From a virus (lineage: Duplodnaviria; Heunggongvirae; Uroviricota; Caudoviricetes), in the IMG/VR virus record IMGVR_UViG_2740892442_000004: a stretch of DNA of 64,000 nt, one strand, 5' to 3'. This document shows positions 5,396 to 54,304 of this stretch, one piece after another; positions within the stretch are counted from its first letter, which is position 1, and every line of letters begins with the position of its first letter. The notes under the pieces were generated by a model. That model searched no databases, was not told the DNA's origin, and was given only the letters and a program-made list of their open reading frames with translations. The translations under genes and the position numbers were made by a program.

Positions 5396-5578
5396 AGACC
5401 TAAGCCTTGTGTGTTTAACGTATTAGTTAAGTGAAATCATATAGAAGTGACCTGACAGCTACAACTGGACAAGATTAAGAGCATTTTTTATAAACGAAAA
5501 TAAACGCCTACATTGATAAGTAGATACATACTTATATTTCTGTAAGAATATGCTCGACGAAGGAATTGAGGAACCTTT

Positions 5579-6373
5579 ATGAAAGCAGATATTCAGAAGT
5601 CCGTTACCGAAATCATCGACAAATCAGGCGTAGAAATTGATACAGAAGAGCGCCAGAAGATTATCGATGAGGCGATCCAGACTGCGCTGGAGCACATCGC
5701 CACGTCTGTGAGCACCGCACCTCTTTCGGAAGGCTCGAAATACATGCGGGTCTGGGTTCGTTTTGGGGAGTCCCCGGAGCTGCCTGGTGTTAAACAGAAA
5801 CGCGCGGCACTCGTGGCGTTCACTCGCAAAATGAAGGACGCAACGGTCGAAGTACGCGCCGGTGCATGGTACGACGGTCGCGTTGTCTACACCAATCAGG
5901 CAGTGTGCGATGAAGGTGAACGGTTTGAGGAAATTGTCGACGCGACTCTTCGCGCGATCAAAGGCAGGGCTGGCGTAGAGGATGATCCTTCTATCGCGGC
6001 GTTCCTGAGCATTGTCGAACTGCCTGAAGTTACCGAACGCGTTACAGATCTGACAACCCCACCTGGTTTGCTGGAGTTGGTGGTCAGTGGCGATACCAAA
6101 AAAGCCGTTGAGCGCATTCGTGAGGTGGAATACGGCATCATCTGCGATATGTGCCGCAGCGACTTAGACCTGGTGCGCATCATTGTCGACGCGGGTCAGA
6201 CATGTGACGGTGTGCTCGCCAGTTTTGCAGGGCAGGTGGCACGCCTGGCCAACGAGCTGCCGATGATTAAACAGGAGGCAAAATCCTACGCCGTCCACCA
6301 TGCCAACGATTTACTGGAACCATACCGGTTCGAAGCCGCTCAGGACAAAATGACTGGCTGGGCTACCTGGTAA
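5579..6373 (+). CDS. hypothetical protein
   Basis: 264 aa ORF, GAGG Shine-Dalgarno before ATG. Confidence 0.5.
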   Translation: MKADIQKSVTEIIDKSGVEIDTEERQKIIDEAIQTALEHIATSVSTAPLSEGSKYMRVWVRFGESPELPGVKQKRAALVAFTRKMKDATVEVRAGAWYDGRVVYTNQAVCDEGERFEEIVDATLRAIKGRAGVEDDPSIAAFLSIVELPEVTERVTDLTTPPGLLELVVSGDTKKAVERIREVEYGIICDMCRSDLDLVRIIVDAGQTCDGVLASFAGQVARLANELPMIKQEAKSYAVHHANDLLEPYRFEAAQDKMTGWATW

Positions 6374-6390
6374 GCCTTGATAAACCATTT

Positions 6391-6413
6391 AGCCCCCTGG
6401 TGGGGCTTTTTTA
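6391..6413 (+). terminator. Rho-independent terminator
   Basis: agccccctggtggggct followed by a T-run. Confidence 0.55.
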
Positions 6414-6454
6414 AACTGCGCTCAATAAGTAAGTACACGACTACGGTTAGAAGC

Positions 6455-6919
6455 ATGTCCACAAAAACAGATTTGTCGAAAATCCCGTCTATCTCCGGAA
6501 ACAACGGTTATTCGCTGCGCTGTCAGGAAGTGAAGATCAACGGCCATGAGGCCCATTGCAGCTATACAGTCTGCCAGCACACCATCCTCGCCTACAAAGA
6601 GAAGCGTCTCCCAGCGACATCGTTCCAGTCCTGCGCTGCGGCCATTGCTGCTGGAAAATGCCAGGCGCTGAAGATGATGGTCGAAGAGATCCGCAAAGGC
6701 GAACAGCTCTACTTCATCGATATGGCTGCGCTTATCAAAGAAGTGGAAGAGCAAAACGACCACGCCAGAACGCTTACCCGGAAGCGCAACACCATGACGA
6801 TTCAACGCACGAAGAAAACAGAACCAGCCAAACCCGAAACCACGTCCACCGATTCACTGGCGCCTGTCACTGACGTGTACGCGGCACTCATTGAAGAAGC
6901 AACCAAAGAAAACACATGA
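6455..6919 (+). CDS. hypothetical Cys-rich protein
   Basis: ORF opens at 6377; start placed at ATG 6455 downstream of the intergenic palindromic motif. Confidence 0.4.
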   Translation: MSTKTDLSKIPSISGNNGYSLRCQEVKINGHEAHCSYTVCQHTILAYKEKRLPATSFQSCAAAIAAGKCQALKMMVEEIRKGEQLYFIDMAALIKEVEEQNDHARTLTRKRNTMTIQRTKKTEPAKPETTSTDSLAPVTDVYAALIEEATKENT

Positions 6920-8924: not shown

Positions 8925-9702
8925 AAACATCACGATAAGTATTTACTTACTTATCTTTTATGTATAAGATGACTTTGTTTTCGTTGAGACGCGACTGTTT
9001 GAACTTAAATACAAGTGCAAACGAAGAAGTCTATCTGGCAGTAGCCTAATAAGCCAAACACCAGCGAGGTCAGTTTCCAGCCTCGTTACCGAAATGGGAC
9101 ACACTGAGCGAGTGTGATTGCAGAACGCAGGAGGGAACATGAGTGTTCCCTCCGATGAAGTAACAGAATGGGCGGTTGGTATATTTTCAACTCCATATGA
9201 CTCCCGGATTCTTAGCCACTGACCGCCCATCCTGTTACGTCATTTTGTTCAATTATGTCGTTTATACTGGGTTAAAAAGCGGCGACGTAGCCCGGCTGGT
9301 ATGGTTAGCCAGCACACAACGTTGAGGCCATTACATTTTTATCAATTCTAAGGTTCTATTCACAGAGATACCGGCGAGCGTTGATATGTAACATGTTGGG
9401 CAAACATTCAATCGGAGTAGTGGCCTCAACGTTGTGAAGACGGGATTGTTGTGTAGGTTTAACCACTGTTGCCATTGGTGCCTGTTTTCACAACAAATGA
9501 TTCCATACATCACATTGTATAAATTACAAAGTAGGTGCTGTCCTCAGAAACATCATCTACTTAAAGATTTTGCCTTCTACTATTGAGCGAAGTCGAAAGC
9601 GTCTGGCACTAACGAAAAGTGCAAGTAGCGGTGCGTTTCCTGGCAGAAACTAAACCGTCGCGATTGGCACTGTTGAGTAATAAATACTGGCAGTGCTGAA
9701 TT

Positions 9703-9777
9703 GATGGTGTAGCTCAGCGGTAGAGCAGTTGGCTGTTAACCAACTGGTCGGTGGTTCGAATCCACCCACCATCGCCA
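9703..9777 (+). tRNA. tRNA-Asn (anticodon GTT)
   Basis: Cloverleaf: acceptor gatggtg/caccatc, D-arm tagctcagcggtagagc, anticodon loop ctGTTaa, T-loop ggttcgaatcc, CCA end. Confidence 0.75.
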
Positions 9778-9782
9778 ATTTA

Positions 9783-9869
9783 GGGGAGTTAGTCCGTAGA
9801 GGTAGCGGTGTAGACTGTAAATCTACTGTCATGGCGACTCGGGTGGTTCGACTCCATCACTCCCCACCA
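9783..9869 (+). tRNA. tRNA-Tyr (anticodon GTA), long variable arm
   Basis: Acceptor ggggagt/actcccc, anticodon stem-loop gtagaCTGTAAAtctac, T-loop ggttcgactcc, CCA end. Confidence 0.65.
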
Positions 9870-9873
9870 AATT

Positions 9874-9949
9874 GCCGGTTTAGCTCAGTTGGTAGAGCAG
9901 TCGCTTTGTAAGCGAATGGCCAGCGGTTCAAGTCCGTTAACCGGCACCA
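9874..9949 (+). tRNA. tRNA-Thr (anticodon TGT)
   Basis: Acceptor gccggtt/aaccggc, D-arm tagctcagttggtagagc, anticodon loop ttTGTaa, T-loop ggttcaagtcc, CCA end. Confidence 0.65.
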
Positions 9950-10269
9950 ACACAACAGGTAAGAGCATTGGGCGAATCGGCGATACTGACCCACAAGGCC
10001 GTAAATCGATAGAGTCAGACCAGTGCTCTTACCGTTGTGAGGAAGTGCAGCTCTTTGAAGCAACCAGAAGATAAGCATCTGGCTTCACAACACAACGATA
10101 ATATCATTACGGTTAATCGTCGTTCATGTGCACAATGACTGGTCGAAAGGTAGTGATCTTACCGTTGTGATGAATGCACAGGCTGATGTGCCGCAACTAC
10201 AGTAGTGCGCGCTTTGCGGGGCTTGCTACAACCCTGTGTCGGAGTTCAGCACCGACCATCACAATAGCT

Positions 10270-10356
10270 GGAGAGTAGGGAGCATGGTGCTCAAGCGGTC
10301 TTGAAAACCGTCCCATTGTGCAAACGATGATGGTTCGATTCCATTACTCTCCGCCA
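10270..10356 (+). tRNA. tRNA-Ser (anticodon TGA), long variable arm
   Basis: Acceptor ggagagt/actctcc, anticodon stem-loop gcggtCTTGAAAaccgt as in enterobacterial tRNA-Ser(UGA), T-loop ggttcgattcc, CCA end. Confidence 0.7.
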
Positions 10357-10549: not shown

Positions 10550-11812
10550 TTACTTTGCATAGTCGCCCAATTTTAATATTTCGCGCTTATATTCATTAAC
10601 CATGCTACTGGATTCAGTATAAATTCGATTTAAAAGATTATCGTTATCTTTATTCTCATTTATCTTAATGAGTGATAATTTATATTCATAGTCATCAAAT
10701 GCCACAATCAAATGGTGGCCTGGGATTATATCTTCGTCACTCTTGAAGTATATATCTTCAAGTATGTAATCTAGTTGATTAGATTTTCTTTTCTCGATGT
10801 AATCTTCAGCCATAGCTATTACATCATTCCTGTCATTTAACCTGTTTTTTTCGGAAGGCACATCTTCGTAATGTTGCACGATTGAACAACCAATAAGGCG
10901 TGGGATGTAAACGTCAAAATGAGTAACTCTATCATTCGCGGTTTTAAGTAGTTCCTCAAAGTAGTTTCTTACATGTAAAGGCAACTTCTCAAAGTAATCA
11001 TTAATTATAGGAGAACAAGGAGTTTTATAATTCATAAGAACCGACGGTACGAGCTTTGGGTCTCGAAACATCCAGTCCCTTTTAACGTCCGATGGAACAT
11101 AATAACTTTTAATGATATTATCAAAATAATTTATCATTCGAGATTTGAATATTTTGTTGAATCTAAGGTTTATGAATGCATCCAGATAAGGCATATCTGA
11201 ATAAGCATCATCAAAAAATATTTCATCATTGAAAAAATCATATTTATTTAATAAACAACACAGTTTTCCCGAATTAATATGTTCACAATAATCGATCTTT
11301 AATCCAAAGATAGCAATGATCAACTTCATCTGAGGTGGGATTTTGAAAATTAATTGTGACACATACGCTCTTTTTTCCTTTAGACATTCCCCATCAATAT
11401 AAAATGAACTATCCACATACTCAAAAATATTAATAATATGCTTCACATACTGTATTACCTCATGCTGTTTTACCAATGGGTAATATAGTCTATTTAACTC
11501 ATCGCTGTTTAAATTAATTTTGCGTTTATCGATAATTTGTTTTGCAAGAAGACATAGCTCATCATGTTGATTTAATAAGGAATCAAACCATTGTTTAAAT
11601 GCACTCTTTCGCATTTCGAACAATGATTCTGTTGTTAATTGAAGGGCTGAAAAAGCTGCTTTTGCACTTTTTCTCGCTTCGTAGGCATTCCATGCTGTTG
11701 CTATAAAAGCAAATGCTGTAGCCAATGTTCCAACAATTTGACCATTTAAAACAACCCAATCCCAAAAAATCACGGTGAGCAGTAGTATAATAATGAAAAT
11801 TAAAAAAGGCAT
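10550..11812 (-). CDS. hypothetical membrane protein, strongly AT-rich
   Basis: 420 aa; two predicted N-terminal TM helices; GC visibly far below flanks; opposite strand to neighbours. Confidence 0.55.
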   Translation of the reverse strand: MPFLIFIIILLLTVIFWDWVVLNGQIVGTLATAFAFIATAWNAYEARKSAKAAFSALQLTTESLFEMRKSAFKQWFDSLLNQHDELCLLAKQIIDKRKINLNSDELNRLYYPLVKQHEVIQYVKHIINIFEYVDSSFYIDGECLKEKRAYVSQLIFKIPPQMKLIIAIFGLKIDYCEHINSGKLCCLLNKYDFFNDEIFFDDAYSDMPYLDAFINLRFNKIFKSRMINYFDNIIKSYYVPSDVKRDWMFRDPKLVPSVLMNYKTPCSPIINDYFEKLPLHVRNYFEELLKTANDRVTHFDVYIPRLIGCSIVQHYEDVPSEKNRLNDRNDVIAMAEDYIEKRKSNQLDYILEDIYFKSDEDIIPGHHLIVAFDDYEYKLSLIKINENKDNDNLLNRIYTESSSMVNEYKREILKLGDYAK

Positions 11813-42306: not shown

Positions 42307-43410
42307 GTGTCACTCCTTTTGAATCGTGAGCATACGAACGGTCAGGTAACAAACGCATCGTATGCAAAAGTTATTGAGACGGTGCTTAAAAGCGGCGTGC
42401 AGGCTGATGATCGCACAGGCACTGGTACTTTAAGCACCTGCTACGTTCCCTCTTACTACATGCTTACTGGTGGGACTGTGCCGCTTATTTCTGGAAAGGC
42501 GGTAAATCTTAAGCCACTGCTTGTCGAACTTGAGTGGTATCTGAAAGGCACGGGCAACATCCAATTTCTCAAGGATAACGGCGTTAAGATTTGGGATGCA
42601 TGGGCCGATGAGAATGGCGATTTGGGGCCGGTTTACGGTAAGCAGTGGCGTCGATGGGAAGATACCCGCATCGTGAGCCATAGTGAATATCTGAGCAAGA
42701 TCGCTACTTTCCGTGAACGCGGGTACAAAGTCGAGGGATACCTGGGTATCAGTGAAGATCGCGTAGTGCTGTCCCGTGAAATCGATCAGCTACAGCGTAT
42801 TGTCGATACACTGCGCACGAACCCTACCGATCGTCGCATCATGCTTAACGCATGGAACGTAGGCGAGCTTGAGGATATGAAACTGCCACCTTGCCACTTT
42901 GTCTTCTCTTTGTGGAGTCGTGAGCTGGATTTTGAAACCCGTTTAACGATGGCAACTGACATTGGTCTTCAACACAGTCGCCTCGGTTACGAGTCTATCT
43001 ACACCAAGATGCTATACGATCTGGAGATGGACGGCAGTGTTACTGAAGCTGAACTGGATGAACTTGGAATCCCCAAACGCATCCTCAACTCCTGCCTCGT
43101 ACAGCGTAGCGTAGACACTTTTGTTGGTATGCCATTCAATATTGCTGGCTATGGCATTCTCACTCATTTTCTCGCGAAGATTACGGGTCACATGGCCGGT
43201 GCATTTGTGCATTTTGGCTTTGACGTGCATTTGTACAACAACCACATGGAAGGTGTGTGTGAGCTAATGAAACGACAGGCTCCAGAGCATTCAGATCCGG
43301 TCGTTATTTTCCCTCATGAATGGTCAGAGTTGGATGATTTCAAATGGGACGAGGTTTTAATTCTTGGCTATGACCCTCTATCGTGGATCAAGGTTCCAGT
43401 GGCGGTGTGA
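42307..43410 (+). CDS. thyA: Thymidylate synthase (ThyA-like) with internal insertion
   Basis: DRTGTGTLS, GPVYGKQWRRW, catalytic PPCHF, LVQRSVDTF...PFNIAGYG; about 50-65 aa insert after the catalytic Cys; start uncertain (ORF opens 42280). Confidence 0.7.
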   Translation: MSLLLNREHTNGQVTNASYAKVIETVLKSGVQADDRTGTGTLSTCYVPSYYMLTGGTVPLISGKAVNLKPLLVELEWYLKGTGNIQFLKDNGVKIWDAWADENGDLGPVYGKQWRRWEDTRIVSHSEYLSKIATFRERGYKVEGYLGISEDRVVLSREIDQLQRIVDTLRTNPTDRRIMLNAWNVGELEDMKLPPCHFVFSLWSRELDFETRLTMATDIGLQHSRLGYESIYTKMLYDLEMDGSVTEAELDELGIPKRILNSCLVQRSVDTFVGMPFNIAGYGILTHFLAKITGHMAGAFVHFGFDVHLYNNHMEGVCELMKRQAPEHSDPVVIFPHEWSELDDFKWDEVLILGYDPLSWIKVPVAV

Positions 43411-43411
43411 T

Positions 43412-43825
43412 ATGGCAAGAGGTATGTATGTCTTATGCGAAATTGAAGGTGTGCTGGCAAATGCCAGCCATCGTAAATCAGTATCTGACGCGGATGCAGG
43501 CCAGCTCATTGCCGGTGATGAACTCATTTTCCCCACCAGCCGTATGTTGCGTGGTTTTGCTCGCTCAGGGGCTGAAGTGGTGCTTATCAGTAGCCGCTCT
43601 GAAACTCTTGAAGCGCCAACTAAACGATGGCTGAAAGATTTTGGCGTTGATTATGACTGGCTTCATCTCGTACCGAATGGCACCAGTTATGAGAAGCATA
43701 TTAAGCGCACATTAGCGGAGCATAAAGGCGATCTGCTTATCGCTGCGCTGGTGCACGATCCTCGACTCCGTGCCGCTTTAGCCGACTCTCACCATCGACC
43801 GGTCATCTATGAGGTGAGCAAATGA
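43412..43825 (+). CDS. hypothetical protein
   Basis: ORF opens at 43364; ATG 43412 just after thyA stop. Confidence 0.4.
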   Translation: MARGMYVLCEIEGVLANASHRKSVSDADAGQLIAGDELIFPTSRMLRGFARSGAEVVLISSRSETLEAPTKRWLKDFGVDYDWLHLVPNGTSYEKHIKRTLAEHKGDLLIAALVHDPRLRAALADSHHRPVIYEVSK

Positions 43826-44298
43826 AGATGATCGCTGCTGTTGGCCGTAACTATGAGATCGGCATAGCGAATGAACTCCCCTGGCGTTGTTCTACCGATC
43901 TGAAGCTATTTAAGAGACTCACCAAAAACGCCACTGTCGTTATGGGGCGTAAAACGATGGAAAGTCTCAAACGCCCTCTTCCAGAGCGTCATAACCTCGT
44001 TTTGACGCGCTCTCATGGCTTTGTACCAAATGGATTCTACCCTGCTGGTGTGGATGATGTGTTGCGATTACCAGAGCCTGTGTGGGTGATTGGCGGGGAA
44101 CAAATTTACTCGCTATTCATGCCGCATGTTGAAGAGATTTGGCTCTCCCACATCGGCGTTGATGTGCCAAACGCCGATGCATTCTTCCCGGCAAGCATGA
44201 TGCGTAATTTAGGCTTTGTGCCTGTTGAAACAGCTTATACCCAACGAGCCAGCGAGGAAGAGCCTGGCTTTTCGCAGATCGTATACAGAAGGTCGTAA
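43822..44298 (+). CDS. folA: Dihydrofolate reductase
   Basis: IAAVGRNYEIG...LPW...VVMGRKT...RPLPER...VIGG motifs; 158 aa. Confidence 0.8.
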   Translation: MKMIAAVGRNYEIGIANELPWRCSTDLKLFKRLTKNATVVMGRKTMESLKRPLPERHNLVLTRSHGFVPNGFYPAGVDDVLRLPEPVWVIGGEQIYSLFMPHVEEIWLSHIGVDVPNADAFFPASMMRNLGFVPVETAYTQRASEEEPGFSQIVYRRS

Positions 44299-44732
44299 TG
44301 GATTACCGGATTGGGATCACTGGTGCTCAGGGCAGTGGGAAAACAACCCTGGCTAAATATATCGACAAACATTACGGAATCCCTTACGTGGATGCTGGTG
44401 TCGGAAGTTTGATGAGCCGCCTCGGTGTTCGAGTAGGTGATTCTATGCCTCTATATGAGCGGCTTCAGATTCAAATGGAAATAGCAAAGCATATAGAGCT
44501 ACTTACGCGTGGTGTTGAAGGCTTTGTTATCGATCGCACACCTGCTGATGTTATGGCCTACACGTTGGATTTGGTCGGCCATACAAATGAAGATCGGTGT
44601 ATTGAGTTAGCCCTCGATATCGAAAAGTTTTGCCACAAAACTGCTATTTCAAACTTTAACGCCATTGCTGCTTACGCCCGGGAGTCGCTCTCTCAGAGCG
44701 AGATTACTTGCGATCACAACGAGCATCATTAG
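44298..44732 (+). CDS. P-loop nucleotide kinase-like protein (may continue in another frame to about 44941)
   Basis: Walker A GITGAQGSGKTTLAKY; downstream ORF 44708-44941 in a shifted frame could be its C-terminus. Confidence 0.45.
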   Translation: MDYRIGITGAQGSGKTTLAKYIDKHYGIPYVDAGVGSLMSRLGVRVGDSMPLYERLQIQMEIAKHIELLTRGVEGFVIDRTPADVMAYTLDLVGHTNEDRCIELALDIEKFCHKTAISNFNAIAAYARESLSQSEITCDHNEHH

Positions 44733-45002
44733 ACCGTCTGTATGTCGCTCGTATTGATGCGTTGATGTGCGGGGAACTGACAAAAATTCACCTGCATCCG
44801 CAAAGGGGAGATCTGCAAACCTTCGTCGTTTCCAACCGATATCGCACGGTTGAAGCAAGAGCCAGATCAGTGATGAGAATGCTAGATAACGCTGTAGAAA
44901 AGATAGAAAACCGGTTCTGTGGCCGAGTGACCGTTCATTAGAAATTGTTCGCCTCTTCGACATTGCGACAATAAAACTCTCAAAATGGGTTAAGGATAAA
45001 AA

Positions 45003-45421
45003 ATGTTTAGTGAAATGTTGCTTGAAGATGAACTGGATCGGAAAACAACAGAGGCTTTGATTCGTGTAGCGGACGAACATTCCCGGTCGCTTATGAGCGA
45101 TCGAGAGGCTCGTCTGGCTATTCGTGCCATATTCGAACTGCGCAGGGGCTTGTTGGTACACAAGTGGGTGAAGCCATTAACATCGCCATGTCTCAGTTCA
45201 GTGAAGGCAGTAAAAAGCCTCTGTTTCCTATGCATTTGATGCTGGCTGGTGGCACGGTGCTTTATATCTCTGTTTGTCTGGATAGCAACCAAATCAATAT
45301 TCTCAACACTGTGTCAGGTAAGTGGAAAGATCCGATTGTCTGTGAAACCAGTGAAGAAACTTTGAAAAAAGCGGCTCAATTTGTACGTAGCGCACTACTT
45401 AAGGGCGCTAAGAAGTTGTAA
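45003..45421 (+). CDS. hypothetical protein, apparent frameshift at GGGG run near 45170
   Basis: ORFs 45003-45239 and 45164-45421 overlap in adjacent frames across a homopolymer. Confidence 0.35.
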
Positions 45422-45430
45422 GGAGTTCTG

Positions 45431-45988
45431 ATGACAACGATTGTTGCAGGCATCGATATCGAGTCTACGGGACTGGATTTCCTTGCTGGTCATAAAATTA
45501 TTGAAATCGCAATTACCCGCTATGAACTGGAGACACAGAGACATATTGATAGTCTGGAGATGCGTTTTAACCCTCGCAGAAACATAGATCCGAAAGCTCA
45601 AGCCGTTCATGGCATTTCATTGGAACAGCTCGCAGCTGAACCTTTGTTGTCAAATCATGCCAGCGAAATTGGCGCTTATATGGGGGCATGTAGTGTGTGG
45701 GTTGCTCATAACGGCGAAGCATTTGATATACCATTTATTCGACACGAGTTTTCAGGGTATGGAGTAAGACTGCCAGAAGTTCCTGTTATAGATACTATGT
45801 TATCGGGATTGTGGGCCACAGAAGACGGTAAACGTCCCCGCCTTGAAGAGTTGGCCTTCTCTCTTGGCTTTATATACGATCATGCCAAAGCACATAGTGC
45901 CTTATATGACACAAACTTAATGATGCAATGCTTCTTTAAGGCACGTAATAAGTACGGATTTTTTAAATTACCCTCTGAAATTGTGTAA
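45431..45988 (+). CDS. DnaQ-like 3'-5' exonuclease (DEDDh family)
   Basis: Exo I GIDIESTGL; Exo II HNGEAFDIPF; Exo III HSALYD. Confidence 0.7.
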   Translation: MTTIVAGIDIESTGLDFLAGHKIIEIAITRYELETQRHIDSLEMRFNPRRNIDPKAQAVHGISLEQLAAEPLLSNHASEIGAYMGACSVWVAHNGEAFDIPFIRHEFSGYGVRLPEVPVIDTMLSGLWATEDGKRPRLEELAFSLGFIYDHAKAHSALYDTNLMMQCFFKARNKYGFFKLPSEIV

Positions 45989-46146
45989 AACAAAAGCCTA
46001 CTTTAAAAAGTTTAAAGTAGGCTTTCTTTTAAAGAACAGTCGCCTTTCAATCATTTCCTGCCTGTATTTAATACTTTTCCGCCTGATAGGTTTAGTCAAA
46101 ATGTAGCCATCGAAACGCAAATGTAACCAAACAGAAGGAGACTTAC

Positions 46147-46956
46147 ATGAGTTCGGTTGAAAATGTAATGACAAATGATGATCTGGACGAGCTGGCAGCC
46201 ATGTTGCAATCACTTGATGAACCAGTAAAAAAAGCTGCACAGGTTGAAAATACTGATGATATTGACGATCTGCTGCTCGGCCTAGATGCTGGCGTAGCCA
46301 TGAGTTCTGATGATGTTGCCGAAGAACTGTTCAATGAAGAAAAAGCAGGTGATTTCAGCTCAGCTTTAAATGAGTTGGAGTTAGCGCATGAGCCTATAAA
46401 CGTAATTAACGCTGAAAGTGGTGAAGCTGCCGAAAACGAACCAGAACAGTTGGGGATCATCGAGGTTGAAGGGTGTGTTGAGATTAATGATGAATTAAAA
46501 GTTCAACAGTCAAATGATAGCAACACAAATAAAAAAGCGCGTACTGCAAGAGGTCCTCGTTTTGCTCTAAGTGATAAAGATGATGCGTTTTTCAATAAAG
46601 CGGGTTTAGAGAAAGATATTTTTTTAGACGCTTACGATAACGCGCCTGTCAAAGCAAAGGATAAGATATTAAACCTTCTTAATTGGTTTAGCGGAGGTCC
46701 AGATATTAGTGTTTACACGGTAATTTCCATGAGACACCTTCTCACAGAAAAGAAGGCTACAAGTAATAGTATTAAGATTGCTTTAATGAGCAATCCAGAA
46801 AAACCGTATCCGCTTAACACTGCGTCAACTCAGGCTGGGCAAATGATGGCTGTATTTCCAGCGACAGGAATTGCCGTTAGAGACGGTGGAAATCTAACAT
46901 TGAACGAAGAATCACCGATCGTTAAGAAGTTTGTCGCGGAGTACACTATTGGATGA
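46147..46956 (+). CDS. hypothetical acidic protein
   Basis: 269 aa, D/E-rich N-terminal half. Confidence 0.45.
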   Translation: MSSVENVMTNDDLDELAAMLQSLDEPVKKAAQVENTDDIDDLLLGLDAGVAMSSDDVAEELFNEEKAGDFSSALNELELAHEPINVINAESGEAAENEPEQLGIIEVEGCVEINDELKVQQSNDSNTNKKARTARGPRFALSDKDDAFFNKAGLEKDIFLDAYDNAPVKAKDKILNLLNWFSGGPDISVYTVISMRHLLTEKKATSNSIKIALMSNPEKPYPLNTASTQAGQMMAVFPATGIAVRDGGNLTLNEESPIVKKFVAEYTIG

Positions 46957-47139: not shown

Positions 47140-47733
47140 ATGATTGCAGCCGAAAAAATCAAACAGCGAAAGCGCGACAACTCTCTTCGTGACCTCTGGA
47201 GAACACCTGACTGGCTGTTTTCTGCCATTCAACGTTATCTTGGAGTGACATTTGATGTTGACGTTGCCTGCAACAAGGACAATGCAAAGCTGCCTAATTT
47301 CATAGGCGTTGAGCGTGATGCTTTGAAATCTGAATGGGGACAGCCAGGTACAATTGCCTTCCTCAATCCACCCTACTCCAAAATCTCCCCCTGGATTGAT
47401 GCGGCTATACGTGAGCAGGCTCGCGGAGTTACAACAGTGATGCTAATTCCTCAATCCCTAGATACAAAGTGGTATGAGCGTGCAACAGAGTGTGCGAATG
47501 AGACGATTATTCTGTCTGGTGGCCGCGTAGCGTTTGTCGAGCCTGACGTCAATCTGGGTCAGGTAGAAGTAAACATCAACCCAGGTGGCAGTATGCTCGT
47601 TGTTTTTCGAGGATTCTGTCAGGACGCTGGGCACTCTATAAGCAAGATCCCTTTGGACGTCATGAAAAGTCTGGGAGGGTATGATCCTGCGAATGTGATC
47701 AGGAAAAAAAGACCATCAAAGAAGGCTGCTTAG
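47140..47733 (+). CDS. DNA N6-adenine methyltransferase (phage Dam-like)
   Basis: WRTPDWLF N-terminus and FLNPPYS catalytic motif; 197 aa. Confidence 0.7.
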   Translation: MIAAEKIKQRKRDNSLRDLWRTPDWLFSAIQRYLGVTFDVDVACNKDNAKLPNFIGVERDALKSEWGQPGTIAFLNPPYSKISPWIDAAIREQARGVTTVMLIPQSLDTKWYERATECANETIILSGGRVAFVEPDVNLGQVEVNINPGGSMLVVFRGFCQDAGHSISKIPLDVMKSLGGYDPANVIRKKRPSKKAA

Positions 47734-50991: not shown

Positions 50992-51561
50992 ATGTGCAAG
51001 AAATGCAAAGCGATAGCTGATGAACAAAACGCCTTATTCGAAGAAATGGATGCTAATGAACTGGTCAAAATGTTAGCCATTCTTCGAGGAATAGAAGACG
51101 TTTCCATATTTGAGAGAGTGGTTACAGCACTTAATTTTGAGTCCACCTTTGAAGAGCCAACTCAGGTTGTAGCTTTAGCACATCATTTCGGTGTTCATTA
51201 TCTTGCTGAAAAAGAGCGCGCTGATAAGTTGCAGGCGACTTTGGATATGGTGAGCGAGACTCAACGAACTGATGACACTAACAAGAGTGAGGCGATTATT
51301 GCCAGCAAAGATCGTGAAATTGCTGGGCTTAAATCCTCTCTAACGATGTTGATGTCTGCGTTCAATCTTATGTCTTCTCAGGCGGGTTATAAAATGCCAT
51401 CACTAAACAGCGATGATCCGATGGCCGTTCGTCAGCTTTTGGGAGCAATGGCCGACCAACTCGACGACACAAAGAGTCGGCTTGAAGACATGATGCGTGA
51501 GTTAAGCCATCGACATAACCTCGCAACACAGCCACACAAAGCCTTTCAAAGCTCTAATTGA
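50992..51561 (+). CDS. hypothetical protein
   Basis: 189 aa ORF with palindrome + AGGAAAAACACATG leader. Confidence 0.45.
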   Translation: MCKKCKAIADEQNALFEEMDANELVKMLAILRGIEDVSIFERVVTALNFESTFEEPTQVVALAHHFGVHYLAEKERADKLQATLDMVSETQRTDDTNKSEAIIASKDREIAGLKSSLTMLMSAFNLMSSQAGYKMPSLNSDDPMAVRQLLGAMADQLDDTKSRLEDMMRELSHRHNLATQPHKAFQSSN

Positions 51562-51616
51562 TCTGATATGGCCGCATGATCGGCCATATTGTGTTGATAA
51601 AAAACAAGGATGAAAA

Positions 51617-51898
51617 ATGGCATACGGTACAGGGATTTACAACAATAAAGGAATTAACGTTACTGGCTTCCTTACTCCTATTTTTTTTCTTGATCGATTT
51701 ACTGCGTCATCAGGCTCTAAGACGTACTCCAATCCGCCACCGGGTAAATCGCTACATGCCGTGTGGTCATTGATGCCTCTTAACAACGACAACTACATTA
51801 ATTTACCTGTTCCAACAGTTACTATTAATGGAAATACGGTTAGTTGGTCAAATTTATATACGGGGCTTGGTTCTTACATATACACATACTGGGGATAA
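51617..51898 (+). CDS. hypothetical protein, AT-rich, Tyr/Asn/Gly-rich
   Basis: 93 aa ORF. Confidence 0.4.
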   Translation: MAYGTGIYNNKGINVTGFLTPIFFLDRFTASSGSKTYSNPPPGKSLHAVWSLMPLNNDNYINLPVPTVTINGNTVSWSNLYTGLGSYIYTYWG

Positions 51899-51900
51899 TT

Positions 51901-52515
51901 ATGTTCGGGATGTCAATTACTCAATCAGATGGAAGTTTGTGGATGAGTCCAGAATTTACTCCGCAAAATCTGATTAATAAAGGGACAATGTCTACATCTA
52001 AAGGTTCTGTTTTTCAAACATCAATCCCATCAAACAAATCATGCTTTTTCTTCATAAAAAGCAGTAATAAGGCGAACATGATGTTTATTCATGAGCATAG
52101 TAACGGATACAATGCTCTCAGATTGCATCAGGTAAATGGTAGCCCCGGAACAATAACAGTTTATGCTTTTTCTGATATGGTGTTACCACATTCTGGCTAT
52201 GGCATTGCCATGTATAACAGCGCAGGCGCAATGGTGTATCACGGTGAGATGATGCCCCTTGATGCGAAACTTATCACTATTTCTGACCCTCAATTTACAA
52301 TAGATATGGGGTATCCATGTGCGGTAATGCCTGCTATGGTTGGGGTATATAACTATAGACGAACCGATTACGACAGACCTGTCTATGTAACAATGACAGG
52401 TGCAACTGGAAACCAAGTATATAACGGTCAATGGTATTCCGGTAATGTCACATGGGATATTAAGAAGATTTATACAAACAAAATTCTGGTGATAAATACC
52501 TCCAAGTATGATTAG
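51901..52515 (+). CDS. hypothetical protein, AT-rich, beta-rich composition
   Basis: 204 aa; ORF opens at 51844. Confidence 0.4.
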   Translation: MFGMSITQSDGSLWMSPEFTPQNLINKGTMSTSKGSVFQTSIPSNKSCFFFIKSSNKANMMFIHEHSNGYNALRLHQVNGSPGTITVYAFSDMVLPHSGYGIAMYNSAGAMVYHGEMMPLDAKLITISDPQFTIDMGYPCAVMPAMVGVYNYRRTDYDRPVYVTMTGATGNQVYNGQWYSGNVTWDIKKIYTNKILVINTSKYD

Positions 52516-52618
52516 CCAATGCCTTTATTTGAAGGATTGCCTGTTTATTTCTATTTAGTACCTTTTCATTTTTGAAATAATTGCACCATTAAACAAATCA
52601 CTTCTTAATGGTGCAATT

Positions 52619-54304
52619 ATGAATACAGCCCTTTCCATCATCGACGATGCCAACTCAAACACTGCTATCGACTATCGGCAGGAAATGAACGTCATCCACG
52701 AAATTGTGGCCGAGTGCGAGAAAGAGATCGCCTTCATGTATCAGGTACACGACTTCGTTTATGGCGACGAACGCCACAACATGATTAATCGCCTGCTGAG
52801 ACTAAACCATCGACCAGATGAAGATCGCTCGCGTTTAAATCGAGGTTGGTTGGATAAAGTCGATCTGGAATGGGTGAAACAGAATATTTGGGCCGAGTAC
52901 TGGAGGAAGGTCACGGACATGACTAACGTTTTGCTGATCATGCCAGCTTCCCGTCGAGATGAGTGGCGCGAGCAGTTTATAGAGGGCAAACAGGAAGTCA
53001 TCAAAACTGACAGAACCGGCTACCAGATGAAGGTTAAAGAGTTCGTTGGTGTACCGGAGTTCAAAGCAGAAACGGTCATACCCACGATGCTTAATTTGCT
53101 GAATGACAGGCACAAATATCTCTCTGAGCGCGTGTATGGCTTGTTTAAGGCGCTGAGTCCTGCGCACAAGACAAATAAGACAAACGGTTTCAGCGAACGT
53201 CTGATAATCGCTGACTGCATTTCTGATTTCTGGCGGGACAGCGTTAGTGTGAACTATCGCAAAGAGGACTATATCGACGATCTGCGTGTCTTGCTTCATT
53301 TCTTCGCGCACAAAGAATTTATTACCATCAACCGCACTGCTGAGGTGCTATCAGCTGCGTATCGGGCAAACGACTGCCAGACCGGTGACTGGATGAACGT
53401 CGATGGAAATCTAATGCGCGTGAAGATGTTCAAGAACGGCAACGTTCACTTTGAAATACATCCTGACGTGGCCTGGAAGTTGAATGAGGTGCTGGCTTAC
53501 AGTATGCCTGCTGCAATCCCCGCGCCATGTCGCACCGCGCCAAAAACACGGGCACCAAAGCAGTTCGGGTTAATCCAGAAGACGATCTCCGTGCCGGTTC
53601 GCACTGCGCTTCGTGACGGGCGATTTAGCAAAGACAAAGGCGTATGGTACTTCTCTGATTCAGCTCTCCAGAAGTCGCAGGTGGAAGAGCTTGAGCGCAC
53701 ACTGAGCTTCATTGGCGGCGTGCAGGAGAAAAAGCACTGGCAGTTCCCGTATGAGATCGGCCATACGCTAAATACGATTGTGGCTACCGGTTTAATACCG
53801 GATACAAAATCACACCAGTTCTACCCTACCCCACGCTTGATTGCTGAGTACGTTGCCAGAGCCACTGAATTGAAGCCTGGTGAGAAGTTGTTGGAGCCTC
53901 AAGCCGGACGTGGGGATCTTCTGGCCTATATTAACGCCGATCTGGAAGATGTTACCTGCATAGAAATCGCACCTCTCTTCGCTGATATCCTGCGTGGAAA
54001 AGGGTATACGAACACGATTTGCTGCGACTTCATAAAGTGGTCTGAGGACAACGCAGGTTATCAGTTCGACAAAATCGTTATGAACCCGCCGTACTCGCTT
54101 GGTCGTCATAGAGAGCACACGCTGGCTGCGCTGGGGCATCTGAAAGTCGGCGGGCGTCTTGTAGCAGTATTGCCGGGCACTGCGCCAATACTGGACTGGA
54201 TGACGATGGATAATTACGTTTATGCCAGAGGGAAGTCGTTTACCAACGAGTTTGAAGACACAGGGATCACAGTCAGCGTATACGTTTTCAAACGCGTTAA
54301 ATGA
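52619..54304 (+). CDS. N6-adenine DNA methyltransferase with about 380 aa N-terminal domain of unknown function
   Basis: C-terminal FYPTP, EPQAGRGDL (motif I), MNPPYS (motif IV). Confidence 0.6.
   Translation: MNTALSIIDDANSNTAIDYRQEMNVIHEIVAECEKEIAFMYQVHDFVYGDERHNMINRLLRLNHRPDEDRSRLNRGWLDKVDLEWVKQNIWAEYWRKVTDMTNVLLIMPASRRDEWREQFIEGKQEVIKTDRTGYQMKVKEFVGVPEFKAETVIPTMLNLLNDRHKYLSERVYGLFKALSPAHKTNKTNGFSERLIIADCISDFWRDSVSVNYRKEDYIDDLRVLLHFFAHKEFITINRTAEVLSAAYRANDCQTGDWMNVDGNLMRVKMFKNGNVHFEIHPDVAWKLNEVLAYSMPAAIPAPCRTAPKTRAPKQFGLIQKTISVPVRTALRDGRFSKDKGVWYFSDSALQKSQVEELERTLSFIGGVQEKKHWQFPYEIGHTLNTIVATGLIPDTKSHQFYPTPRLIAEYVARATELKPGEKLLEPQAGRGDLLAYINADLEDVTCIEIAPLFADILRGKGYTNTICCDFIKWSEDNAGYQFDKIVMNPPYSLGRHREHTLAALGHLKVGGRLVAVLPGTAPILDWMTMDNYVYARGKSFTNEFEDTGITVSVYVFKRVK

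Follow-up and report, generated by a model that had tools for sequence, protein, structure and literature searches.

Why do two small AT-rich genes lie directly in front of a large adenine methyltransferase gene in an SSU5-like phage-plasmid, and do the three genes form one module? The window analysed here, the whole stretch of 64,000 nucleotides, is an SSU5-like phage-plasmid with 98–99% identity to the E. coli phages CMS-2020a and Cyrano. The two small genes (ORF1 and ORF2) are flanked by a conserved hypothetical gene on one side and by the methyltransferase gene on the other. The families of all three proteins are already known and are poorly characterised. The features of the locus are listed below.

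51545..52545 (approximate), + strand: inserted segment of about 1 kb with ORF1 and ORF2, from the alignment with SSU5 and the empty site of pEcFELIX533.2
51566..51589, + strand: inverted repeat with 9-bp perfect arms, ATATGGCCG / CGGCCATAT, after the upstream gene and before ORF1 (repeat search)
51617..51898, + strand: ORF1, 93 aa
51901..52515, + strand: ORF2, 204 aa, in the reading frame next to that of ORF1 and starting 2 nt past its stop
52577..52620, + strand: perfect inverted repeat with 16-bp arms and a 12-nt spacer (repeat search)
52619..54304, + strand: methyltransferase ORF, 561 aa
52619..53803, + strand: N-terminal module of the methyltransferase, aa 1–395 (helical, 1–139; DUF4942, 140–295; small alpha/beta, 296–395)
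53804..54304, + strand: catalytic domain, aa 396–561 plus stop (QFYPTP, 400–405; motif I EPQAGRG, 426–432; motif IV NPPY, 489–492)

The ORF coordinates of the initial annotation, and its description of a 561-aa protein with a C-terminal N6-adenine-type methyltransferase domain, were borne out. For ORF2, homologues favour the ATG at 51901 (204 aa) over an upstream TTG at 51844. Composition analysis also agreed with what had been noticed in the letters: the pair has a GC content of 0.389 (39%), whereas the window has 0.461 (46%), the upstream gene 0.44 and the methyltransferase gene 0.498; only 2.8% of 900-bp windows have a GC content as low or lower. Tyr, Asn, Gly and Thr together account for 42% of ORF1 and 30% of ORF2, as compared to 20% of the methyltransferase. 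A scan for promoters and terminators around ORF1 and ORF2 gave nothing above chance.

Alignment with SSU5 and with the E. coli plasmid pEcFELIX533.2 revealed that the pair is an insertion. Homology breaks off close to where the upstream gene ends and restarts about 60–80 bp 5′ of the methyltransferase ATG; the inserted segment takes the place of about 60 bp of intergenic DNA, including a terminator-like hairpin, which are kept at the empty site. No target-site duplication was seen in this alignment. The methyltransferase of pEcFELIX533.2 is 99% identical and the ORF1/ORF2 site is empty; SSU5 also lacks the insertion at its methyltransferase gene. ORF1 and ORF2 are therefore not core genes of these phage-plasmids, being absent from SSU5 and from an E. 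coli phage-plasmid that is 99% related, and the idea that they might be conserved core genes, which would have spoken against the initial annotation, did not hold. In the sister plasmid with the empty site, the tail module has the other cassette, type A, which encodes proteins of 84 and 188 aa, together with cor; Cyrano and PhiR41_1 are type-B phage-plasmids, with the cassette studied here. In the 108-kb genome of Cyrano, J is located at 17.7–22.4 kb and the pair at 81.9–82.8 kb; in this E. coli lineage the pair is about 40–60 kb from the tail genes, with early and DNA-metabolism genes around it. Cyrano and the window have a single copy of the pair, and the usual tail-module cassette (pair plus cor) is missing from both. 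The window, and those parts of Cyrano that were sampled, gave no homologue of cor or of tonn gp65.

ORF1 belongs to PHROG family 557 (E = 4.7e-29), labelled 'outer membrane protein' in that database, and ORF2 to PHROG family 425 (E = 2.2e-72), labelled 'membrane associated protein'. Both labels are mislabels. Neither ORF has a signal peptide, a lipobox, a transmembrane segment or a hydrophobic N-terminus, and the maximal Kyte-Doolittle(19) values are 0.94 and 1.10, respectively. We also asked whether ORF1 is a copy of the ORF2 N-terminus, which was unsupported (hhalign probability 2.5%). The two-gene layout, an ORF of about 90 aa followed a few nucleotides further on the same strand by an ORF of about 200 aa, is common to JenP1, Stx2-86, tonn and SSU5. 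The identity of ORF1 is 76% with JenP1 gp22, 63% with Stx2-86 gp27, 49% with tonn gp66 and 30% with SSU5_023; between ORF2 and SSU5_024 it is 27%. The homologous pair is beside gpJ in JenP1 (78% nucleotide identity) and in tonn/FritzSarasin, and 3′ of a J-like tail protein gene and adjoining lom in the Stx phages; in SSU5 and the type-A phage-plasmids of E. coli it precedes cor. A pair of the same kind adjoining gpJ or a tail fibre gene is found in small siphoviruses (T1-like phages, Nonagvirus) and in Stx podoviruses. The pair studied here is not directly downstream of a gpJ-like central fibre or tail fibre gene. It also has no adjacent superinfection-exclusion lipoprotein gene of the Cor/Llp/Rtp45 kind, a frequent but not universal companion that JenP1 lacks as well.

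In PLSDB, 257 copies of the cassette were counted across 246 plasmids, so that at most 11 plasmids can have two cassettes. The tail-module cassette is absent where the ectopic pair is present, and the distribution is close to one cassette per plasmid; among E. coli phage-plasmids the two cassette types are largely mutually exclusive. Many Klebsiella SSU5-like plasmids have no cassette of any type.

The composition of ORF1 and ORF2 had suggested fibre or adhesin proteins, a guess with which the family assignments agree, since these families form the receptor-binding-locus pair of T1-like phages. ORF2 was predicted as an all-beta protein whose model resembles a solved phage receptor-binding protein (PDB 9RPT); its predicted fold is related to that of an experimentally proven receptor-binding protein of this locus. 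A BFVD fold search with ORF2 matched only uncharacterised phage proteins. The locus downstream of gpJ tracks terminal-receptor specificity (PMC8594841; bioRxiv 10.64898/2026.04.02.716166), and the small siphoviruses that have it are Drexlerviridae, Dhillonvirus and Queuovirinae (Maffei et al. 2021, PMC8594841). The receptor of FritzSarasin is BtuB, and the nearest relative with a measured receptor, at 40% identity, is from a BtuB-dependent phage; a receptor for JenP1 or JenP2 was not found in the BASEL supplements. The case for PHROG 425 as a candidate receptor binder comes from correlation, from AlphaFold modelling by others and from the present fold match. The J C-terminus was not seen to co-vary with cassette type: between type-A and type-B plasmids, the J tips are 99% identical. 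The J C-terminal domain is present in 1744 phage records; being so widespread, and so similar across cassette types, it says little about compatibility.

We propose that ORF1 and ORF2 were gained horizontally as a receptor-binding cassette. ORF2 would be a soluble beta-sandwich protein, presumably made in the lytic cycle, that may dock by its poorly ordered N-terminal base on the tip of the J-like central fibre, and may bind a host outer-membrane protein. ORF1 would act with it as a small adaptor or assembly factor. Since the pair is far from the tail genes and the tail-module pair and cor are missing, it probably supplies or alters terminal-receptor specificity in trans, and is probably an accessory host-range determinant. 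A borrowed receptor-binding cassette and an unrelated core orphan adenine methyltransferase that merely stand side by side is the reading we favour, with a confidence that is about evenly balanced. More tentatively, it is possible that phage-plasmids switch their terminal receptor by capturing exchangeable trans-encoded pairs, with Stx podoviruses and virulent phages of the T1-like or Queuovirinae kind as donors, and that the ectopic cassette replaced the FhuA-type pair and cor in about 120 E. coli phage-plasmids. Under this extension any position in the genome would serve, as the proteins of the cassette would dock post-translationally on the conserved tip of the J fibre, and a widespread plasmid-phage that is common in the clinic would have been retargeted to a BtuB-like or BamA-like outer-membrane protein, with loss of its self-exclusion gene.

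The pair could also be passenger cargo, recombined in from a Nonagvirus- or Stx-like phage and still intact, with no part in adsorption and with either no role or an unrelated one. Its position, 40–60 kb from the tail genes and amid early and DNA-metabolism genes, would fit this view, as would the existence of SSU5-like plasmids without any cassette and the lack of a cognate exclusion lipoprotein. The Stx-phage homologues are moreover dispensable on K-12: ORF72 and ORF73 of Sp5 were targeted separately, each with its own deletion primers, and neither belongs to the nine genes that plaque formation or lysogeny on that host requires (PMC5155283), so that the pair is not universally essential for infection. 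However, both ORFs are intact and full length, at 95–100% identity, in about 112 E. coli plasmids, the pair is under strong purifying selection (dN/dS = 0.06 between lineages), and there is nearly one cassette per plasmid, with no tail-module copy beside the ectopic pair. We therefore consider mere carriage unlikely.

The neighbourhood of exclusion genes in other phages raises the alternative of a membrane-associated moron, in which the pair would act in superinfection exclusion beside or instead of Cor. The pair is directly 5′ of cor in T1, N15, phi80, HK022, ES18 and SSU5 (PMC13164509) and adjoins lom in Stx phages, and its non-essentiality in Sp5 would suit an accessory exclusion role; but ORF1 and ORF2 carry none of the membrane signals looked for, whereas a lipoprotein signal is clear in tonn gp65 and Cor. 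Furthermore, the pair is at background transcription in the lysogen (LF82, in which CYRAN_88/89/90 transcripts are at background, as for the tail genes), the modelled fold of ORF2 matches a virion receptor-binding protein and no exclusion protein, and no cor gene accompanies the pair here. An exclusion role thus appears improbable.

Judged from its sequence, the 561-aa protein is a core orphan SAM-dependent methyltransferase of SSU5-like phage-plasmids, of predicted N6-adenine type, with orthologues in SSU5-like elements of many Enterobacterales. No restriction endonuclease or specificity gene is adjacent: the neighbours are the pair, the conserved hypothetical gene and Ead/Ea22-like genes. 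PADLOC matched the methyltransferase domain only, and gave no defence-system match for ORF1 or ORF2. As in gamma-type enzymes, motif I precedes motif IV, (N/D)PP(Y/F), in a Rossmann-fold domain. The chain ends about 70 residues past NPPY and has no C-terminal target-recognition domain; the C-terminus is a M.TaqI-like minimal catalytic domain.

The first 380 aa had been described as unassigned. This needs correction for residues 140–295, which match Pfam PF13708 (DUF4942; E = 1.8e-20, 73.9 bits against a cut-off of 25), and stands in so far as DUF4942 is itself a family of unknown function. The same match was obtained in 12 of 12 diverse relatives of the methyltransferase. The N-terminal module has an invariant HxTN loop at residues 183–186, and its AF2 model has a pLDDT of 82.6; sequence searches gave no PDB relative, and the module could not be matched to a fold or a known function. 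A profile search with the module gave 1534 cluster representatives; among the best 149 of these, 139 were at least 490 aa long, and NPP[YFW] was present downstream in 136 of the 139. The module is family-specific and, in nearly all of the full-length relatives that were checked, is joined to the catalytic domain in one chain, which makes a part in target recognition plausible. As there is no C-terminal recognition domain, the DUF4942-containing module most likely provides recognition of the substrate, putatively DNA. Values of dN/dS are 0.068 for the module and 0.095 for the catalytic domain. The enzyme may methylate phage DNA during lytic growth or establishment, and so blunt host restriction.

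The start of the methyltransferase gene is covered by the hairpin at 52577..52620, whose 3′ arm takes in the probable Shine-Dalgarno sequence and reaches the second base of the AUG. The corresponding RNA fold has an energy of −23 kcal/mol (z = −6.1). In the sister plasmid a 12-bp stem is kept, with a compensatory G-C to A-U change; in the case of SSU5, the stem at this site is weak.

The best structural match of the methyltransferase is METTL5, an rRNA m6A enzyme, and most relatives have NPPF, so that DNA as the substrate is not proven. The protein might act on RNA or protein and not on DNA, for example as a host-takeover enzyme on rRNA or tRNA. We give this little credence, since DNA enzymes score nearly alike (M.BseCI 17.4, M.TaqI 17.3, CamA 16.8; identity up to 26%), the QFYPTP...EPxAG...NPPY layout aligns with M.TaqI, and the family is found on phages, plasmids and islands, with a catalytic domain that is homologous to YdcA and also matches methyltransferase modules of giant phage proteins.

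The single target-recognition or anti-restriction module suggested by the initial annotation, in which the pair would aid the enzyme, draws on adjacency and shared orientation and is very improbable, because the methyltransferase (at least 80% identity) is found in about 547 PLSDB plasmids and the pair in only about 122, leaving about 78% of related plasmids with the enzyme and no pair, the 99%-identical enzyme of the sister plasmid is beside an empty site, Nonagvirus, Warwickvirus and Stx phages (JenP1 and tonn among them) have the pair with no such enzyme nearby, and GC3 differs between pair (0.37) and methyltransferase (0.59). Nothing was found for a functional link between the two.

What sets the host range of SSU5-like phage-plasmids matters, since these elements are frequent in Enterobacterales of clinical and animal origin and can bring resistance genes with them. 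If the ectopic pair is a terminal receptor-binding module, host range would be readable and engineerable from a 1-kb cassette outside the tail operon, and annotation that seeks receptor-binding genes only near tail genes would miss such cases. Through its fold match to the LptD-binding protein, PHROG 425 gains a structural connection with a proven receptor binder, which a 2026 paper on T1-like phages failed to find. The fusion of DUF4942 with a methyltransferase constitutes a large family, which is spread over phages, large plasmids and islands, numbers at least 1500 clusters (50% identity) and is a reasonable methylome target.

Among known systems, the closest alleles of the pair are those of Warwickvirus tonn/FritzSarasin (gp66, gp67 and the lipoprotein gp65) and Nonagvirus JenP1 (gp22/gp21), which are alike in PHROG families 557 and 425, in gene order and in the gap of 2–3 nt. 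Compared with the small-siphovirus receptor-specificity locus (PMC8594841), the pair has 76–83% identity to JenP1 and 40–49% to tonn; that locus adjoins gpJ, whereas the pair here is about 40–60 kb away among early genes, with no exclusion lipoprotein, in a 108-kb temperate phage-plasmid. The cor cassette, composed of a small ORF, an ORF of about 190–200 aa and the Cor lipoprotein gene, is found in the FhuA-dependent phages T1, phi80, N15, HK022 and ES18 (PMC13164509, citing Wietzorrek 2006) and also as SSU5_023–025. It holds distant homologues within the same phage-plasmid family; the pair studied here is another allele at another locus, without cor. ORF72 and ORF73 of Sp5, the Stx2 phage of O157 Sakai (92 and 205 aa), match by position and length the Stx-phage pair (Stx2 phage 86, VT2-Sakai), which is 61–63% identical to ORF1/ORF2; they follow a J-like tail protein with the same terminal ...RVRIGRL motif, and their carrier is a podovirus. 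The LptDE-bound receptor-binding protein of Oekolampad (Bas18; PDB 9RPT, PMC12685063) has 309–321 aa against the 204 aa of ORF2, and acts alone with an exclusion lipoprotein, whereas ORF2 has a partner of about 93 aa. No sequence similarity was detectable between the two (hhalign probability 0.4%), and the pair was ruled out as the LptD-type protein, which has 310–320 aa and is of a different family.

As to the methyltransferase, enzymes of the M.TaqI, M.BseCI and CamA type (gamma-like) have a C-terminal target-recognition domain, in place of which the present protein has an N-terminal, DUF4942-containing module of 390 aa. M.EcoGIX and M.BceJIII resemble the present enzyme in being orphan m6A methyltransferases encoded on mobile elements, for which a part in countering restriction at entry has been proposed (PMC7736820). 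They are single-strand-specific plasmid methyltransferases of the beta class, with DPPY (PMC7736820), and therefore represent a different family from the enzyme here, in which motif I precedes NPPY; kinship with M.EcoGIX was ruled out. The plasmid relative of the catalytic domain is, by profile comparison, YdcA (187 aa), encoded beside ydbA and ssb in the conjugative leading region of IncF plasmids (hhalign 99.6%, E = 5.5e-24, 150 columns). YdbA itself, a DUF3560 protein, was ruled out as a split-off N-terminal module (hhalign probability 0.2%). YdcA stands alone, without the N-terminal module, whereas the 561-aa protein is encoded on a non-conjugative phage-plasmid; both belong to mobile elements and have many establishment and anti-defence genes around them.

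The AT-rich gene pair described in the initial annotation as preceding a methyltransferase is real, and the window contains the following features:

9703-10356 (+), four-tRNA cluster: Asn-GTT, Tyr-GTA, Thr-TGT, Ser-TGA
51566-51589, inverted repeat, perfect arms of 9 bp (ATATGGCCG / CGGCCATAT), between the upstream gene and ORF1
51617-51898 (+), ORF1, 93 aa
51901-52515 (+), ORF2, 204 aa
52577-52620, inverted repeat, perfect arms of 16 bp, spacer of 12 nt
52619-54304 (+), methyltransferase, 561 aa: N-terminal module (aa 1-395, including DUF4942) and C-terminal catalytic domain

Over the 3.1 kb around the pair and methyltransferase, identity is 99.0% with Escherichia phage CMS-2020a (CP053388) and 98.3% with Cyrano (phage-plasmid pLF82 from E. 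coli LF82); the match to Salmonella phage SSU5 covers the methyltransferase part alone (89.8% identity). These matches place the window in an SSU5-like phage-plasmid. In the Cyrano annotation, ORF1, ORF2 and the methyltransferase are named CYRAN_88, 89 and 90; their neighbours are Ead/Ea22-like early genes on one flank and, on the other, TciA/TciB-like genes with a conserved hypothetical gene. Elsewhere in the window, a 420-aa ORF with a hydrophobic N-terminus (10550-11812, minus strand) lies directly past the tRNA cluster, for which the Cyrano annotation gives Asn, Thr and Ser only. This ORF occupies the window's most AT-rich stretch (GC 0.30-0.33), has no match in Pfam or PADLOC, and is a candidate moron or defence gene; at the equivalent place, Cyrano has a different gene, CYRAN_43, expressed very highly.

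SSU5 has an orthologue of the upstream gene (SSU5_094), and its methyltransferase gene (SSU5_095) comes directly next, after 141 bp and without the pair. The site is likewise empty in E. coli plasmid pEcFELIX533.2. Alignments to these empty sites place the limits of the inserted segment near 51545 and 52545, and show no target duplication; about 60 bp with a terminator-like hairpin at the empty site were replaced by the insertion. The repeat at 51566-51589 lies within the inserted segment, and the hairpin of the empty site is different and GC-rich. With JenP1, JenP2 and BRET, which are virulent phages of the genus Nonagvirus, a nucleotide similarity of 78% spans the pair only.

Searching PLSDB with ORF2 retrieved 257 copies on 246 plasmids. 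Close copies (at least 60% identity) occur on 122 plasmids, with at least 95% identity in 112 of them, and their carriers are almost all 100-116-kb non-mobilisable E. coli plasmids. The distant SSU5_024-type copy only is found on 124 plasmids, and at most 11 PLSDB plasmids have two copies. The methyltransferase is present at 80% identity or more on about 547 plasmids, as against 122 with close copies of the pair, leaving unsupported the functional link that had been suggested between them. Against a single target-recognition or anti-restriction module stand pEcFELIX533.2, where a methyltransferase 99.1% identical to that of the window adjoins the empty site, and JenP1, Warwickvirus tonn and Stx2 phage 86, which carry the pair beside tail genes and have no methyltransferase of this kind in the vicinity. 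Adjacency is the sole link between pair and methyltransferase, their distributions, composition and evolutionary histories being independent. Both are members of known families.

Full-length orthologues of the methyltransferase (45-99% identity) are carried by 100-118-kb contigs from Escherichia, Salmonella, Klebsiella, Citrobacter, Cronobacter, Enterobacter, Xenorhabdus, Providencia, Moellerella and Morganella. Remoter homologues (33-39%) are chromosomal or on other elements, and IncHI2 plasmids encode full-length homologues at 31% identity. The N-terminal part contains many invariant residues in an alignment of 28 sequences, including LSxxHxTNxxxGF (179-191, modelled as a loop of low confidence), DLR (221-223), DG (262-263) and HxxxHP (277-282). 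Searching 1.84 billion cluster representatives with a profile built on residues 1-395 gave 1534 protein matches, 418 of them below 1e-30. HxTN is kept in all of the best 149, 139 of which are at least 490 aa long; NPP[YFW] is found in 136 of these 139 (as NPPF in 111), and the N-terminal module and catalytic domain thus form one conserved unit. Compared with SSU5, dN/dS is 0.068 for the former and 0.095 for the latter. In the 136 motif carriers the distance from motif start to C-terminus has a median of about 71 residues; the chain stops soon after motif IV-VIII, too early to accommodate the recognition domain that is usual at the C-terminus, and the obvious candidate for substrate recognition is therefore the N-terminal module. 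YdcA (187 aa, beside ssb in the IncF leading region) is a homologue of the catalytic domain, which also matches methyltransferase modules within phage proteins of very large size (PHROGs, 1400-3900 aa). M.EcoGIX was rejected as a relative, being unrelated. No nuclease or specificity gene was found among the neighbouring genes or with PADLOC, so the methyltransferase is an orphan enzyme.

The first 62 or so residues (52619-52804), which have a PHROG to themselves (25525), match separately, at 63-67% identity, genes of Klebsiella plasmids annotated as 'restriction endonuclease subunit M' or hypothetical; possible readings of this N-terminal helix are a mobile sub-module and a recombination junction. 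A second, small adenine methyltransferase (47140-47733, plus strand, 197 aa, NPPY motif), annotated as such in both Cyrano and SSU5, lies 4.9 kb upstream; IncHI2 plasmids have a Dam-family enzyme within about 2 kb of their DUF4942 methyltransferase. In the repeat at 52577-52620, the 3' arm spans the first two bases (AU) of the methyltransferase start codon together with the probable Shine-Dalgarno sequence. The RNA hairpin has a folding energy of -23 kcal/mol (z = -6.1). A sister plasmid retains a stem of 12 bp that includes a compensatory G-C to A-U change; in SSU5 the stem is weak. This hairpin could gate translation or serve as an operator.

The guess of fibre- or adhesin-like proteins, made from composition, was right: ORF1 matches PHROG 557 ('outer membrane protein') and ORF2 PHROG 425 ('membrane associated protein'), a pair found at the locus associated with gpJ, the central tail fibre protein J. 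JenP1 carries this two-gene unit between gpJ and a tail protein gene, on the opposite strand; in tonn the unit is convergent with gpJ, and in Stx2 phage 86 it follows a 422-aa J-like tail protein and precedes lom. Warwickvirus phages encode an 89-aa lipoprotein with a clear lipobox upstream of the pair (5451-5720 in tonn), whereas JenP1 has the pair alone at this locus (5944-6842); the cassette can thus include an exclusion gene as a third member or do without it. Alleles of the locus downstream of gpJ have been matched one by one to terminal-receptor specificity (PMC8594841; bioRxiv 10.64898/2026.04.02.716166). FritzSarasin (Bas04) uses BtuB; its ORF2 homologue shares 98.5% identity with the tonn protein and about 40% with ORF2 of the window. 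BtuB is the vitamin B12 receptor, and these phage-plasmids carry cobalamin-related genes (CobT-like, cobalamin synthase; Cyrano 43137-46576) away from the pair, an overlap that may be coincidence.

We propose receptor binding as the role of ORF2. During lytic growth, ORF2 would be made with ORF1 as its partner, join the J fibre tip and bind an outer-membrane protein; the terminal receptor of the window lineage would then differ from that of the FhuA-type lineage with pair and cor (a superinfection-exclusion lipoprotein gene). The relatives point to no single receptor: the one associated with BtuB shares only 40% identity, and relatives at 61% identity occur in Stx phages. Stx phages reportedly use BamA. 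The J C-terminal domain, ending in VLRVRIGRL, is common to JenP1, tonn and the Stx tail protein; it is 99% identical between phage-plasmids with the cassette and cor in the tail module (type A) and those of the Cyrano kind (type B) and present in 1744 phage records, and so is compatible with the model but not diagnostic.

ORF2 is under constraint relative to JenP1 (pN 0.094, pS 0.669, dN/dS about 0.06); synonymous sites of ORF1 are saturated in the same comparison. In normalised RNA-seq of the LF82 lysogen, CYRAN_88, 89 and 90 reach 7.6, 11.4 and 7.8, the level of tail genes (J, 12.5), against 96 for the repressor and 7084 for a true moron (PMC9928086, S1 Table); therefore none is expressed for lysogenic conversion. 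In Stx2 phage Sp5, ORF72 (92 aa) and ORF73 (205 aa), the counterparts of the pair by position and length, were given separate deletion primer sets and are outside the nine genes required for plaques or lysogeny on K-12, while the upstream J-like ORF71 is essential (PMC5155283). This leaves the pair, in Sp5, as an accessory or conditional determinant at most, a point against the proposed receptor-binding role.

A distant version of the pair (SSU5_023/024, 27-30% identity) is present in SSU5 itself, past the tail fibre genes and followed by cor; this arrangement has been described as a conserved cassette of the FhuA-dependent phages T1, HK022, N15, ES18 and phi80 (PMC13164509). In type A, the tail module of pEcFELIX526.1, a sister of equal length to pEcFELIX533.2, consists in order of J, a tail fibre gene, ORFs of 84 and 188 aa, an unannotated cor and holin. 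The cor-like lipoprotein gene (MMKRLFLTIAVVLSLTGC...; NZ_CP101923.1, about 9615-9850) that comes after the 84-aa/188-aa pair in the tail module of type-A E. coli phage-plasmids is absent from the PLSDB gene table. In type B, J is followed in the Cyrano tail module by a longer tail fibre of the P1 S-like kind and then by holin, with neither cassette nor cor, and the pair lies by the methyltransferase instead. There is thus usually one cassette per phage-plasmid, at either place; Klebsiella relatives have it at neither. What is unusual here is a receptor-binding cassette in an ectopic position, in a phage-plasmid lineage without the usual tail-module cassette.
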